DNA of 64,000 bases from Octopus vulgaris (taxonomy: Eukaryota), in NCBI GenBank assembly GCA_951406725.2, contig OX597818.1, forward strand, positions 10,230,001-10,294,000, in the 5' to 3' direction. Numbering within the stretch: position 1 is the first letter of the stretch; every line of letters starts with the position of its first letter. Shown here one piece after another: positions 26,346 through 64,000 of the stretch. Position numbers and translations under genes: made by a program. Below the pieces are notes generated by a model. It saw only the letters and a program-made list of their open reading frames with translations, made no database searches and was not told the DNA's origin.

Positions 26346-27442
26346 GAGAGTATTGTAGTTCGTTTGAAGCATTGTGCATTGTAAAGAATAAAATGTTTCG
26401 AATGGTACAACAATGCACTATAATACAAGCAATGGGCTATATACTTGTTGTAATTTAACCATTTATAGTCTGATAATATTTCAGAATAAAATTCTTTCCT
26501 TAGATATTCCTAGGAACTGATGGAGTCGCTGCTATAATCGGGATTCTAACGGGTTTTTTTCCGGAAGCGTCTCTGCAGTGGTCTCACGAAGCTCTTTCCG
26601 GAATTCCTTATTTGAAGTGCGTGAGGTCGGCCATGTCTCAATCTTTTGTGTGCTGGCACATCTGTGGCGCTGCTTCTAAGTTATGTATTATACGTAAAGC
26701 CTCCTTTTCCCCTTCTTTTTTCTTCTCTTTTTTTTTGTTATAAACAATATATGAGCATGTTATAAAAAATGAACCTACACGCATCCAGATGTAGCTAAAT
26801 AATATATTGATTACCAACCTCTAGTCTGTTGTTAATTTGGGGCCCTAGTCTGTGAATGAGTTTAGCTTCCTTAATTCTTAAATTACCCATATTCTTTCAG
26901 CGGCCTCAATTATGACTGTTATGCTTTTGTCGGTGTCCCGGCATCTGTCTAGATGTTTTCTGAAGGAGGAGGCTCTCGTGTTCAGATGTTCTTTGATGCA
27001 GACGTGTATAGGTCTTGATGTGCTACCCACATAGAACTTGTTGCATTTGCTACATTGCATTCTATACACAACATTTACCCGTTGGCATAAATCTGTGTCA
27101 CGGATGGGACAGTTTGTTAGTGTGCGTTGATTGTTGTCCCTTGTTCATTTATTTGCGAGATGTCTTCTCAGAGAGGGGCCGCAGTGGGCTAGTTGTATGT
27201 CTAGCCATTCTCTTCTTATGGCTCTTCGGATGGCTGTAGTTATCCTCTCGCTAAAATGGGGTATTTTAAGGAAGCATGTATTACTGGGTTTTCTGTGTTC
27301 GGCGTGTTGGTCGTCTTGGGTACTGAAGCCGATTTATAATGGATCTAGGGTACCCGTTGGTTTTCAATATATCTAGGAAGCGTGTAGTGTGGGTCTCCTT
27401 GTCCTCCGTTCTGCTGCCCTTGCCCTGGATGCGTGCAAGTTC
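26345..27442 (-). mobile_element. Penelope-like element 3' part: thumb/linker, GIY-YIG endonuclease and pseudo-LTR
   Basis: LKTNGYP, LKIPHFSE, CPIRDTDLC, NVVYRMQCSKCNKFYVGSTSRPIHVCIKEH, KEAKLIHRLGPQINN (GIY-YIG); frameshifts and stops; ends at (TA)n. Confidence 0.85.
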
Positions 27443-28302
27443 GTGCGGTGAATAAATTGTGGTCAAAATTAAACAAAAATGAAAATGACACTGATACCTC
27501 ATTTTAACAGATATGTTTACAATTGTATTAAAATATTTTGAAATACTGAAGAGTAAATTTATTCAATAAAATTGCCATTGGCTTCAACCACGGTCTCCAG
27601 GCAACTTCAGAATCTCCTGCAATTCTTCTGGATGGTCTCCTTGTTCAAGTTGGGGAATGCTACCATAAACCTTGCCTTAAGTTCATCTTTGGTGTTACAA
27701 GGAGTTTTGTTGGTCTCTCGCACAACTACGCCTCAAACATAATAAATAATCAAGTGGGGCGTAGTCTAGGGAGATAGGTGGCCAGATGTTAGGGGTGATG
27801 TGGTCGCAGAAATTGTCTGACAGCCATGACTGGGTTCTTCTGCTTGTGTAACATGGGGCAGAGTCCCGTTGTTAGACATAGTGTGTTCCAGCAGCCACAC
27901 TCTTAACCCAGAAAAACAATGCCTCCTCCAGGCAATTATTGAAGACCTCTGTGTTGAGACTGAGGCCGTGTAGGAAGATAAATGGAGGTATAAGGTCGCC
28001 ATCACTAGAGATTACTCCAAACACCATGATGTTGACTCTCATGTCCTGAGATCACACTATCCTTAGATTGACAGCCAAACTCTCTGAAACGTTCCTATTG
28101 GAGCTTCCGGTGCGAATGCCAAGCAGTACAGCATGTCCTTTTCAAATTTCTGGCAAAGTGAATTGCGCCATGGTGTCTTTTTTGTCACAAACGGTGCGCA
28201 ACTGACCCTACTATACTGAGTAGTCGACGAAATTAAAAACAAACAATGTGCATGCACGAAATAGAATATATGAAACAGTGACTATTTACCCATCGCACCC
28301 TA
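27443..28302 (-). mobile_element. Tc1/mariner-superfamily DD37D (maT) transposon, internally deleted
   Basis: QRDSAPCY...WPPISLDYAPLDY with 37 residues between the second and third D; C-terminus EANGNFIE*; imperfect TIRs GTGCGGTGAATAAATTGT / ACTATTTACCCATCGCACCC. Confidence 0.8.
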
Positions 28303-28449
28303 TATATCTATCTATATATATCTATCTAGAGTAAACAAGAGAGACAGAGAAAGGCAGAAACTAGGAAAATGCCACTTATATTTAAACACTATACAAATAT
28401 TCTTTTAAAAAACTTTTCTTTTAATTTTTCTAAATTTAATTATTGTTAA

Positions 28450-28483
28450 AGTTAAAAAGGTCTCAATGACTGAAACCGGTACT
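28450..28483 (+). ncRNA. Decayed minimal hammerhead motif
   Basis: AG-TTAAAAA (CTGAAGA with three transitions)-GGTC-TCAAT-GACT-GAAAC-CG-GTA-CT; palindromic stem III ACCGGT. Confidence 0.45.
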
Positions 28484-28623
28484 GAAATGTTCTTTATAAA
28501 ATTATTTTAGCATTTTCTATCCGGACTTATTTTTTCATATATATATATATATATACATGAAAAGATAGCACCGGCAAATTGCTAGAAATATATATATATA
28601 TATATCTTTATATATATATATAT

Positions 28624-28755
28624 ATTTATTATATAGAAGGAGCTTCTACAGGACTAGAACTGTTTCATTCAAGAGAAATCTTCAGGAAGCTTCCTGAAGA
28701 TTTCTCTTGAATGAAACAGTTCTAGTCCTGTAGAAGCTCCTTCTACATAATAAAT
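28624..28755. repeat. Palindrome with no spacer (perfect over 28634-28745, centre 28689/28690)
   Basis: 56-bp arms are exact reverse complements; extends to 66 bp with one mismatch. Confidence 0.95.
28688..28738 (+). ncRNA. Type I hammerhead ribozyme motif (mirror copy on minus strand, 28641-28691)
   Basis: AGCUUC-CUGAAGA-U-UUC-UCUU-GAA-U-GAA-ACAG-UUCUAGUC-CUGU-A(17)-GAAGCU: 6-bp stem I, 4-bp stem III, GUA triplet (cleavage after 28732). Confidence 0.75.
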
Positions 28756-28842
28756 TAATTTTACTCTGCTATGTATTGAGTACCTTATTTACTGTGGTTA
28801 ACCCTGAATCAACCCGGGACCTACATATATATATATATATAT

Positions 28843-29268
28843 ATAAATAAAAGAATTCAACCTTGCTCTGATTTTCACGTTTTATTTACAATCTTATAAT
28901 GATATATTATAAGATAATATATTATAATTGAGTAAAATAAAATGAAATAGTAGAATGTTAAATATTCATTCTGATTGAACTAGTACTTTCATGCATTGAA
29001 TTCTGCAATCTTCGGGTTCATGTAGTAGTGTTGACAGTCATGCGTCAAAAATTTTGACAGTCAAAAATTGTGAAGCATGACTGTCAACACTACTACATGA
29101 ACCCGAAGATTGCAGAATTCAATGCATGAAAGTACTAGTTCAATCAGAATATATTTAATATTCTACTATTTCATTTTATTTTATATTATAATATATTATC
29201 TTATAATATATCATTATAAGATTGTAAATAAAACGTGAAAATTAGTGGAATTCTTTTTATTAATATAT
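28843..29268. repeat. Long inverted repeat (~200-bp arms, 31-bp spacer 29044-29074)
   Basis: Inner ~76 bp of the arms are exact reverse complements; outer parts differ by small indels; flanked by (TA)n. Confidence 0.95.
29098..29142 (+). ncRNA. Minimal type I hammerhead motif, U4C variant (mirror copy on minus strand, 28976-29020)
   Basis: UGAAC-CCGAAGA-U-UGCA-GAAUUCAA-UGCA-U-GAA-AGUACU-A(17)-GUUCA: 5-bp stem I, 4-bp stem II, palindromic stem III, CUA triplet. Confidence 0.65.
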
Positions 29269-29292
29269 TCTTCTATACACAATCACACACAC

Positions 29293-29353
<61 letters not shown>

Positions 29354-29563
29354 GTGTAGGAAGAAATGGAGCTGAACGAAGATTTAACAAAATTCCTTTT
29401 TATTATTTTCTACATATGTTTCAAAGGCTGCAAAGTCCCTAATTCGGATTAAAGGCCCCATGGTCGTAACCTCAACCGTACTTTTCTGTTGTGATTTTTG
29501 CTACCCAGGTATCGGTTATCATGTGAATAATCCGTAATAAGATAATTCATTTATCTACTTCAA

Positions 29564-29617
<54 letters not shown>

Positions 29618-29737
29618 TATTTGTATGCGCGGTGTGTGAGAGTACATATACATAAAATGAAACTACACACGATTTTTCCTCCTTTTTGTTTTTCTTTTGT
29701 ATTTTCCTATGTCTCCTGTTTCCGATGAAGAACTTAT

Positions 29738-30062
29738 TCGAACAAATCGTTCCCAGGACTTATTCTTTGTAAGCCTAGTACTTATTCAATCGGGCTGTTT
29801 TGCCGAACCGCTAAGTTACAGGTAAGTAAACACACCAACATCGGTTGTCAAGTGATGGTAGGGGGGGGATCAAAGACAGACACATGCACACATAAACATA
29901 TACGACGGGCTTCTTTCAGTTTCCCTCTATCAAATCCACTCACAAGGCTTTGGTTGGCTCAAGGTCACAGTAGGAGACACTTGCGCAAGGTGCCATGCAG
30001 TGGGACTGAACCCAGAACCAAGTGGTTGGGAAGTAAGCTTCTTATCACACAGCCACGCCCGA
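29738..30062 (-). mobile_element. SINE family A
   Basis: Reverse complement of family A; 3' tail lost at the junction with an HHR remnant. Confidence 0.85.
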
Positions 30063-30618
30063 GCTAAGATATATATGTGTGTGCGCGTGTGTGTGTGTGT
30101 GTGTGTATTTATATATACATACACCTATATAATTATATGATATCGCATAGTTTAGAATATTGCTGCACACCCACATTATTATTTGTGTCTGCGTGGATGA
30201 CGATTGCAGTCGAGGCTAGCACAGCGGGCGGCTAGTACTGATAGTACGGTTGCCAAGCGAGCTAAGATGCAGCATGAGATTTGCTATTCTCTGCACTTTC
30301 TACTAATGGTGGAAGAGAGGTTAGTGAAGTTAATATATGCGTGTATATGAGCGTATGTGTGTATTTTATGTTTGTATGCATTCAGTGGATTGATGTTGTT
30401 CTTAGAATGGTGTTATAGACAGAATGCCGTACAGTATTTCCGTTATGGCAGGGTATTGTCTTAGAACGTAGACTGTGATACCTTGAGCTTCCGGTAGCAA
30501 TACCTCTGTCTCTCGTACGTCTTGGTGGTTTTTTTCATTTTCAGTGGATTTTTTTCCGATGATGCTGGCAATTTGGTGTGATATTAGGTAACTCAAAAAA
30601 ATTTAACAAAATAAGTAT

Positions 30619-31014
30619 AGGCGTAGGAGTGGCTGTGTGGTAAGTAGCTTTCTCACGAACCACACGGTTCCGGGTTCAGTCCCAGTGCGTGGAACCTTGG
30701 GCAAGTGACTTCTACTATAGCCTCGGGCCGACCAAAGCCTTGTGAGTGGATTTGGTAGAGGGGAACTGAAAGAAGCCCGTCGTATATGTGTGGGTGCGTG
30801 TATATACGTTTGCGTGTCAGTGTTTGTCCCCCAACATCGCTTGACAACCCATGCTGGTGTGTTTACGTCCCCGTAACTTAGCGTTTCGACAAAAGAGACC
30901 GATAGAATAAGTACCAGGCTTACAAAGAATAAGTCCTGGGGTCGATTTGCTCGACTAAAAGCGGTGTTCCAGCATGGCCACAGTCAAATGACTGAAAGAA
31001 GTAAAAGAGTAAAA
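30619..31014 (+). mobile_element. SINE family A, full length
   Basis: GGCGTAGGAGTGGCTGTGTGG...GGTTCAGTCCC...canonical tail. Confidence 0.9.
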
Positions 31015-57988: not shown

Positions 57989-59385
57989 TCAGGTTGCCTA
58001 AAAAGTAAGCAACGTATTGAAACATGAAATTCGTCACAATATATTTCAACAATGTGAAAATTTTATTCATCAAAGTAAGTACCATTACAATCAACACATT
58101 TTTACCAACAAGTTTTGTTTATTACGGTAACATAAAATCTGGAGCTAATGAACTCTTTGATCTCACTTACAGCATCGGTTTGAATTTTGAACTCCTTCTC
58201 TCGCAGGAAACCATCAAGGTGCTTGAAAAAGTGGTAGTCGGTAGGAGAAAGGTCTGGGGTATAAGCTGGGTGGGGAAGAACTTCGTAGCCAAGTTCTCTC
58301 AACTTCTAGAGCGTCATTAGGGAAACTCGTGGTCGAGCATTGATCAAAGTGTTCATCAGCTCCAGATTTTTATGTTACCGTAATAAACAAAACTTGTTGG
58401 TAAAAATGTGTTGATTGTAATGGTACTTACTTTGATGAATAAAATTTCCACATTGTTGAAATATATTATGATGAATTTCATGTTTCAAAACGTTGTTTAC
58501 TTTATAGTCAGCCTGTTGACCAGTCTGGGACGAAGGAGTAACAGTTTTTCGTTCATTTTGGTAATTTCAAGGCAATGTTTCTCCAGTAATGGTTTTTTCC
58601 GGGTTTTAAGAAGTTATAGTGGGTGAGTCCAGCAGTACACCACCAAACAGTCACCATAACCTTCTTTCTGAAGAGCTCGGTTTAGGGAAGGGTTTTAGTG
58701 CTTCATTTTGGTCCAACCATTGCGAAGAACGGTTTTTTATTATTGTACAGAATCCACTTTGCATCACAAGTTACAATATGGTCGAGAGATGGATCGGTCT
58801 GGTTACGGAGAAGAAGCGACGATCAAATTTTATATCTGCGCATTTTCTGATTTTCATTCAAATTGTGTGGTACCCATTTGTCGAGCTTCTTTTTTTTCCG
58901 ATTGCTTGCAAATGGATTCAGGCTAACTTGAAGATCTTTTGCCAGTTCTAGTGTGATTTTACGTGGATTTTTCTCAATGTCGGTCTTTAATTGACTGTCA
59001 TGATAAATGGGCATCCACTACGCTCACGATCTTCAAGGCTCAGGTCTCCACTGCGAAATCGTTTAAACCTTGTTCGAGCTGATCGCTCACTGGTCATGTC
59101 CTCACCAAACGTTTCGTTGATATCGCGAGCAGTTTCAGCTGCTTTACGTCCGTTTTTGAAGTTGAATAGCAAAATTGCTCGAATATCGCGCTTTGACAGT
59201 TCCATTTCAGATAATTGTAACAACGGTGAAAAAAATATCAAAGCTAATTTATTGATGCATTTGGACAAGTCTATATCTGTATTATCAGACAATTGCAAAA
59301 ATATGTATAAAAGAATTCGAAACTGTAAAAATCCGGTACAAATTCTTCATGGTTCAAAAAGTTGCTTACTTTTTACTCAATCTGA
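57989..59385 (-). mobile_element. Mariner (DD34D-type) transposon with pseudogenised transposase
   Basis: TIRs TCAGGTTGCCTAAAAAGTAAGCAACGTATTGAA / TCAGATTGAGTAAAAAGTAAGCAACTTTTTGAA, TA on both sides; MELSKRDIRAILLFNFKNGRKAAETARDIN (ATG 59205), WVPHNL, VTCDAKWILY, NARP, HPAYTPDLSPTDYHFF. Confidence 0.92.
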
Positions 59386-63426: not shown

Positions 63427-63505
63427 GTGTCATTATGGTTTATCCTTAAGTACTGACTTAAGGATAAACCATAATGACACCATAATGACACCATAAACCA
63501 TAATG
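63427..63505. repeat. Perfect 25-bp-arm hairpin with adjacent templated tandem copies
   Basis: GTGTCATTATGGTTTATCCTTAAGT-ACTG-ACTTAAGGATAAACCATAATGACAC followed by CATAATGACAC and CATAAACCATAATG. Confidence 0.9.
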
Positions 63506-64000
63506 GCTGAATAAACTTTAAATACATTCAAGGCTTAACGACTCCGTCTTTTCCTTAGAAGCAGTGCGTCTTGAACCGCATTATCTAGTGTGAAAATCCT
63601 TTCTTAAGACACACTGTGTGTATTTTTGCGGATAATTTGGCAGCCATTTCTTACAACTCCAGTGAACACAAAAGAATTCATTTTCGCCTGTCTTTGTTGT
63701 TCTATAAAGCTGTTTTAAAAAGTATGACTAAAAGATGTACCTTCCTCCCCAACTCTCCTGACAAACTGTAAAAAGCCGAGTTGCTAGTTGGCAGAATTAG
63801 GTTTCAACGTTGAACAGGTAGAGCCACTTACATAGTAACTCTGCCAGGTTCTCACAGACATATAGCCATATATTAAGTTGTATACCAAAATTTATTAATG
63901 ATATGTGAATGTAAATGCTGAACTCTGGATGTGATGCAATGGATATGCATGTCATGTGGATTCACTCTCTAGAACGAGGACACATGATATGTATACGATT

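Follow-up and report, generated by a model that had tools for sequence, protein, structure and literature searches.

A 430-base inverted repeat with a hammerhead-like motif in each arm in Octopus vulgaris, probably a head-to-head Penelope-like element end

Penelope-like elements (PLEs) have been described with terminal structures in which copies lie head-to-head. PMC3846280 describes pseudo-LTRs (pLTRs) of ~200 bp, an adjacent inverted pLTR and an optional 31-bp tail; there, 18- and 38-bp palindromes are found at pLTR 5′ ends and head-to-head is the commonest arrangement. Inverted 5′-truncated copies, tails and microsatellite targeting are also described in PMC8557442, and the hammerheads presented in PMC4209133 include dual ones on opposite strands, 100–700 bp apart, with a palindromic loop 3 and low dimer activity. 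According to PMC11167929, both strands of AT-rich DNA are cut, reverse transcription starts in an AC-rich stem-loop set the tail, and ribozyme cleavage is dispensable for insertion in vitro. As to the origin of PLE inverted repeats, self-priming is proposed as their likely cause in PMC3846280, and the account in PMC11167929 leaves the later steps unvalidated. Non-LTR retrozymes form a further point of comparison, and a preprint (bioRxiv 10.64898/2026.07.22.740005) presents retrozymes as derived from PLE pLTRs.

The locus considered here lies in a 64-kb stretch of Octopus vulgaris DNA (hereafter the window), which is AT-rich and filled with microsatellites (GC 0.25–0.43 per 2 kb) and in which inspection revealed no long real ORFs. 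Positions 28843–29268 form a genuine inverted repeat of about 430 bases with a hammerhead-like motif in each arm. The features of the locus and its surroundings are given below.

26737..27457, minus strand: third family, a broken Penelope-like relic with RT thumb and GIY-YIG, 1.4 kb away
28624..28822, unstranded: separate-family 66-bp foldback with a canonical-core hammerhead, cuts after 28732 (+) and 28647 (−)
28825..28844, unstranded: left-flanking (TA)n run and probable insertion target, common to the neighbouring palindrome's extension
28843..29043, minus strand: left arm, an inverted copy with its 3′ end leftward, tailless; outer limit blurred by (TA)n
28976..29020, minus strand: hammerhead-like motif, same sequence as the plus copy, predicted cut after 28981
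29044..29058, unstranded: left half of the centre, a perfect 7-bp mini-hairpin departing from the mirror of 29060–29074 at three positions
29054..29063, plus strand: palindromic seed around A29059, 10-bp inverted repeat with 29078–29087; putative foldback point
29060..29074, plus strand: right half of the centre, an imperfect hairpin; putative original element sequence
29075..29268, plus strand: right arm, a direct copy with the hammerhead-like motif followed by an AT-rich 3′ region (GC 0.12)
29098..29142, plus strand: type I hammerhead-like motif, predicted cut after A29137
29269..29294, plus strand: 26-nt extension present on this side only, with A or C at 20 of 26 positions; candidate PLE "tail" (cf. 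PMC11167929, PMC3846280)
29295..29350, unstranded: (AT)n run, right flank

The inverted arms of about 200 bp reported in the initial annotation are borne out. Alignment of 28843–29043 with 29075–29268 gives 186 identical columns of 206 and nine difference events (three substitutions and six indels, the last indel depending on where the arm end is set), which include a 7-nt indel near the outer end. All of them lie outside the inner 76 bp, which are perfectly paired outward from 29043/29075; this distal clustering has P = 0.016 under uniform placement, a value confounded by composition (GC 0.38 against 0.12 distally). The right-arm 3′ region contains an AATAAA at 29227. An assembly or chimeric-read artefact appears unlikely because the arms differ by nine events and the flanks are not mirrored. 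In the 64-kb window, blastn found no further copies of either palindrome's arms and no ORF is tied to those of 28843–29268, while a 45-aa frame crossing the arms had 0 matches among 1.84 billion proteins. Two motif patterns gave 0 and 0 matches in prokaryotic genomes, as expected and uninformative for an animal repeat. Short motifs of both palindromes had no relevant match in the consensus supplement of PMC8557442, where line breaks could mask matches and those displayed fell within unrelated sequence.

The centre of the structure is itself built of repeats. The 31-nt loop at 29044–29074 reads as first written, and the three pieces then named are all present: a 7-bp mini-hairpin (29044–29050/29052–29058), a 10-nt match to the arm (29054–29063 = 29031–29040) and a 10-nt direct repeat (29044–29053 = 29060–29069). 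Inside the loop 12 of 15 position pairs are complementary around the single central base A29059; the arms therefore extend to the centre, and apart from three mismatches the whole is palindromic about one base. The three-piece description is a valid decomposition, but a foldback centred on one nucleotide plus one template switch yields the same sequence. The mismatches (29044, 29048 and 29051) are all generated by one inverted template switch over 29044–29053, and, starting from the symmetric form, only 6 of the 8100 possible three-base changes of that segment are explicable in this way. A direct copy from 29060 accounts for the centre equally well; templating is therefore evident, its route and order of events not being fixed by the sequence. 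The 10-mer that the centre shares with the arm appeared in 27 of 5000 inner-arm shuffles and 125 of 5000 whole-arm shuffles, which lends modest support to the view that the match did not arise by chance. Arm homogenisation and spacer inversion through template switching have been reported (PMC8604942).

Each arm had been said to carry a minimal hammerhead cut after 29137 (+) or 28981 (−). These predicted sites agree with ours, but the motif is of the type with a short palindromic helix III, whereas a strict "minimal" form lacks loop III. Stem I has 5 bp (29098–29102/29138–29142); the core comprises CCGAAGA (29103–29109) and GAAA (29128–29131); stem II has 4 bp (29111–29114/29123–29126) with a U·U at 29110/29127 closing its base; and stem III is a single base pair with a palindromic GTAC loop, followed by the UA cut after 29137. 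The consensus is satisfied at C3, G5, A6, G8, A9, G12–A14, A15.1–U16.1 and H17 and in the three-helix junction. The motif shares with the PLE type I hammerheads of PMC4209133 the type I topology, the 5-bp helix I, the palindromic loop 3 and an AU-rich 3′ flank, and the two copies, on opposite strands and 156 bp apart, fall within the ~100–700 bp given there for dual hammerheads. It differs from PLE hammerheads in having C4 rather than U4 (in both arms), an unpaired U·U in place of the usual G10.1–C11.1, and a helix II of only 4 bp; by eye, neither C4 nor the U·U closure occurs in any of the 56 PLE hammerhead rows of Fig. S3 in PMC4209133. Both departures have natural parallels: U4C reduces in vitro activity yet is tolerated in a viroid (PMC3088659), and a natural U·U at the stem II closure appears in PMC3088659 and in an axolotl retrozyme in PMC7229834.

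The retrozymes presented in PMC7229834 share more with the locus than this closure, which in Amex2 forms the helix II base: a type I hammerhead with a 1-bp helix III and a palindromic tetraloop (axolotl Amex1), a non-coding nature and a similar size. Retrozymes, however, consist of units in head-to-tail tandem, able to circularise and to dimerise in cis, which the octopus inverted pair cannot do. A non-LTR retrozyme was rejected on the tandem arrangement, the copies being inverted and the window containing no direct copy.

Statistical support for the motif depends strongly on where it is looked for. Rfam gave no hammerhead at gathering score in the window and none at E ≤ 10 in 28400–29500; its microRNA matches, far below gathering, reflect the hairpins only. 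A canonical-core descriptor misses the motif and has two matches in the window, both in the 28624 palindrome. A relaxed descriptor, loosened after the motif had been seen, has four matches in 64 kb, all inside the two palindromes, against 0 of 60 shuffles with stem I of at least 5 and 3 of 60 with stem I of at least 4. On a looser score the motif reaches 23, a value attained in 18 of 10,000 shuffles of the arm and in one of the 301 real 209-bp tiles, but also in 11 of 40 whole-window shuffles. By these counts the motif is significant in its place and unremarkable alone. Its best support is the context, an unrelated neighbour having a canonical core with the same U·U closure and A17. We call the motif hammerhead-like and, as a ribozyme, probably weak.

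Predicted folding bears on the idea, put forward for testing, of dimer-dependent cleavage through the AGUACU of stem III. Stems I and II are predicted to pair with probabilities of 0.86 and 0.91 when the motif is folded alone, of 0.28 and 0.58 when the right arm and its tail are folded, and of 0.0 and 0.0 in read-through RNA, predicted to form a hairpin of −268.4 kcal/mol. Closing stem III in the monomer is predicted to cost 4.8 kcal/mol, and the AGUACU dimer helix (−4.8 kcal/mol, predicted) is possible only between two separate sense RNAs. The copies lie on opposite strands; each transcript would thus hold a single sense copy together with its full complement, the sense copy being, by prediction, hidden in the hairpin, so that the two motifs cannot form a cleaving pair in cis. 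Twin action in cis is therefore not supported, and cis-dimer cleavage was rejected on strand geometry and predicted folding. A present-day function is likely absent.

A second foldback lies immediately to the left. The 28624 palindrome has a zero-base spacer, a 67-nt one-sided extension on the right and a hammerhead score reached in 0 of 10,000 shuffles. The initial annotation assigned the two palindromes the same outward-facing geometry and different families; the hammerhead-like motifs indeed face outward in both, and blastn finds no match between them. Common to both are (TA)n flanks, outward hammerheads, a one-sided extension, U·U closure and A17. Since the two neighbours are unrelated, their common U·U closure may be the mark of a hammerhead subtype of cephalopods. 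Of the five short-spacer hairpins that passed a survey of the window, two were rich in microsatellites and one was a 25-bp hairpin without the motif; the only two long non-microsatellite foldbacks were the 28624 and 28843 palindromes, both bearing motifs. The general mechanism then suggested, without a name, from the likeness is supported in so far as the two loci appear to share one, with a templated centre here; it is most likely PLE retrotransposition and is not new, as the geometry is that of the published PLE inverted pseudo-LTRs described in PMC3846280, PMC8557442 and PMC4209133. The foldback point of the neighbour lies inside its stem I, on the 5′ strand, and its 4-bp stem III with a palindromic loop has a predicted dimer duplex of −14.2 kcal/mol. 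To its left, an old imperfect inverted repeat (28503–28590, 27 of 37 columns) surrounds a (TA)n run.

The flanks of the 28843–29268 palindrome are asymmetric. The 26-nt extension is found at the right arm only, the left arm being without it, and could be separated from host DNA only with other copies. The sole flank repeat, 22 nt of C(AT)n found at both 28824 and 29294, is useless as a TSD, and the (TA)n flanks would mask any TA duplication.

The PLE relic 1.4 kb away has a GIY-YIG match with Pfam E = 0.0014, below the curated cut-off; its reading frame shifts near 27290 and is interrupted by a stop near 27146. Of 30 candidates in a homologue search 4 matched, the best being an RT-bearing Octopus bimaculoides protein with 82% identity, and by tblastn the relic is 76–80% identical to two Octopus bimaculoides proteins; queries with its four relatives matched only 26737–27457. 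It has no DNA similarity to either palindrome and its 3′ region differs. As the source family of the arms the relic was rejected, there being no shared DNA. Near the left end of the window, 1534–1572 (−), with its core at 1566, is a canonical PLE-type minimal hammerhead with a consensus core, an extra A after A9, an ACGT helix III and a G–C closed 4-bp stem II, ~100 bp upstream of a (TA)n run; it is single and non-inverted, with no second copy in the window.

Taken together, these features make it probable that the element is the 3′ end or pseudo-LTR of a PLE, or of a non-autonomous derivative, which was inserted in (TA)n and whose cDNA folded back to give a head-to-head duplicate. The locus shares with the inverted pLTRs of endonuclease-containing PLEs (Adineta vaga Pen2/Pen2a/Pen3a, PMC3846280; scheme in Fig. 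2 of PMC8557442) the ~200-bp repeat, the head-to-head orientation, the junction palindrome, the one-sided 3′ extension and the AT-rich or microsatellite target. Unlike them, it has no ORF or second direct pLTR, a tail of 26 nt against 30–40, a TSD obscured by (TA)n and a junction carrying a template-switch cluster. In favour of a PLE origin, such elements are present in this genome (the relic and the minimal hammerhead at 1566 (−)); against it, the 3′ region of the nearby relic is different, no ORF is linked to the arms, the motif breaks the consensus twice and has no Rfam match, and the tail, shorter than usual, could be host sequence. Family membership is likely, with neither a second copy nor a cognate ORF found.

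From the geometry, motif, flanks, extension and make-up of the centre, which can be read directly, we infer the following course. A PLE protein would have cut the AT-rich target and reverse-transcribed an RNA from its AC-rich tail through the ribozyme, cDNA synthesis halting ~45–50 nt upstream of the core. The cDNA end would then have folded back at the palindrome centred on 29059, likely the 5′ half of a 10-bp hairpin that the source had upstream of its ribozyme (29054–29063 with 29078–29087), and primed a copy of itself; this self-primed copy would be the left arm, ending short of the tail. One short template switch, then or in later replication, may have perfected the 29044–29058 mini-hairpin and made the 10-nt direct repeat. 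The ribozyme would be inherited cargo, which in the source may have cleaved weakly as a dimer of same-sense tandem copies, and read-through RNA, from whichever strand, should by prediction fold into a long hairpin hiding it. Foldback at the cDNA level is our own proposal, PMC3846280 arguing for self-priming on an antisense template. Under a single foldback the nine arm differences would be explained only as later decay.

Two-ended priming, in which a dimeric PLE complex makes a double-strand cut, primes on two RNAs, perhaps from different source copies, and the two truncated cDNAs are joined head-to-head by multi-step templated end joining with the loop built from the three pieces first named, is rather unlikely. 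Purified PLE protein, a predicted dimer, cleaves and extends both strands, and its two RT start sites would leave just one end with a tail (PMC11167929); moreover, the arm differences are indel-rich and lie away from the ribozyme, and a direct copy, a snap-back and a re-annealing reproduce the loop exactly. However, both arms end at the same inner point (12 of 15 pairs, one base), as independent truncations rarely would, the neighbouring palindrome has a zero-base spacer, about three switches are needed against a foldback and one switch event, and distal composition can explain the clustering of the differences. A bolder extension, which we regard as distinctly unlikely, is an octopus family of tiny non-autonomous Penelope derivatives that are obligate head-to-head palindromes with a distinct hammerhead subtype (U·U, A17 and, here, C4), each insertion recording a pair of cDNAs that a dimeric enzyme synthesised from the two DNA ends and that templated joining then connected; if it were true, junctions like the 31-bp loop would settle the origin of PLE inverted repeats. 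It is quite improbable that a solo pseudo-LTR or retrozyme monomer was inserted once and later duplicated in inverted form by host replication or break repair. Template switching does make and perfect hairpins in host DNA (PMC8604942), and a ribozyme-free 25-bp foldback with templated repeats stands at 63427–63480, but the duplicated part ends at the (TA)n run without taking in any host flank, the two long foldbacks of the 64 kb carry hammerheads and sit side by side, and the layout is the usual PLE one.

The remaining alternatives concern the nature of the repeat itself. MITE and Foldback-type DNA transposons have long inverted repeats and TA-rich flanks. That the locus is such an element, its hammerhead a chance look-alike, would agree with those two properties, with the missing Rfam match and two consensus breaks, and with a relic at ~27500–28200 that we take to be mariner-like; even so, it is very improbable. 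The arms are least similar at their outer ends and perfect within, the opposite of what a transposase requires, the motif score is reached in only 18 of 10,000 arm shuffles, and its oddities are common to the neighbour. The one-sided extension, the ribozyme-like motif and the single copy in the window also set the locus apart. On terminal conservation, with all nine differences distal, a MITE or Foldback element was rejected. A functional twin-ribozyme unit, or a host-selected hairpin RNA locus with cooperating ribozymes, would make sense of the perfectly matched inner 76 bp spanning both motifs and of a stem III palindrome predicted to pair between molecules at −4.8 kcal/mol. With only a single sense copy in each transcript, pairing probabilities of 0.0 for stems I and II in read-through RNA and a C4 that lowers in vitro activity (PMC3088659), we consider it extremely unlikely.

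The repeat at 28843–29268 is most likely an ordinary scar of a PLE that copied its end head-to-head during insertion, as is known from other animals. As head-to-head PLE ends with paired hammerheads have already been published, the single locus matters little, and what it modestly adds is one case bearing on the way in which PLEs make inverted repeats: junctions collected genome-wide at base level would separate foldback from the joining of two cDNAs. A narrow literature search on octopus Penelope hammerheads returned no article concerned with such motifs by title, which is not proof of absence.

Several other features of the window deserve mention. Abutting the PLE relic, ~27500–28200 (−) contains what are presumably degenerate Tc1/mariner-like transposase fragments, although Pfam gave 0 matches for a 59-aa piece of them, and a 119-aa frame at 58987–59346 (−) resembles, as we take it, the N-terminal helix-turn-helix of a mariner transposase. 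Apparent decayed hammerheads seen by eye near 28472 (+), 29422 (−) and 26664 (−) fall outside the top 30 of the relaxed scan and do not enter the counts above. The segments 29351–29567 and 28340–28536, unique sequence between (TA)n runs, each contain a GAAA with a palindromic loop and a TA after it, and lack a recognisable core; they may be ribozyme ends in decay, although the relaxed scan gives them no significance. At 63427–63510 a perfect 25-bp hairpin with a 4-base loop precedes short repeats templated on its arm and has no hammerhead motif. Finally, 29734–30958 holds two inverted copies, 84–86% complementary, of an abundant SINE-like repeat, of which many more are spread across the window.
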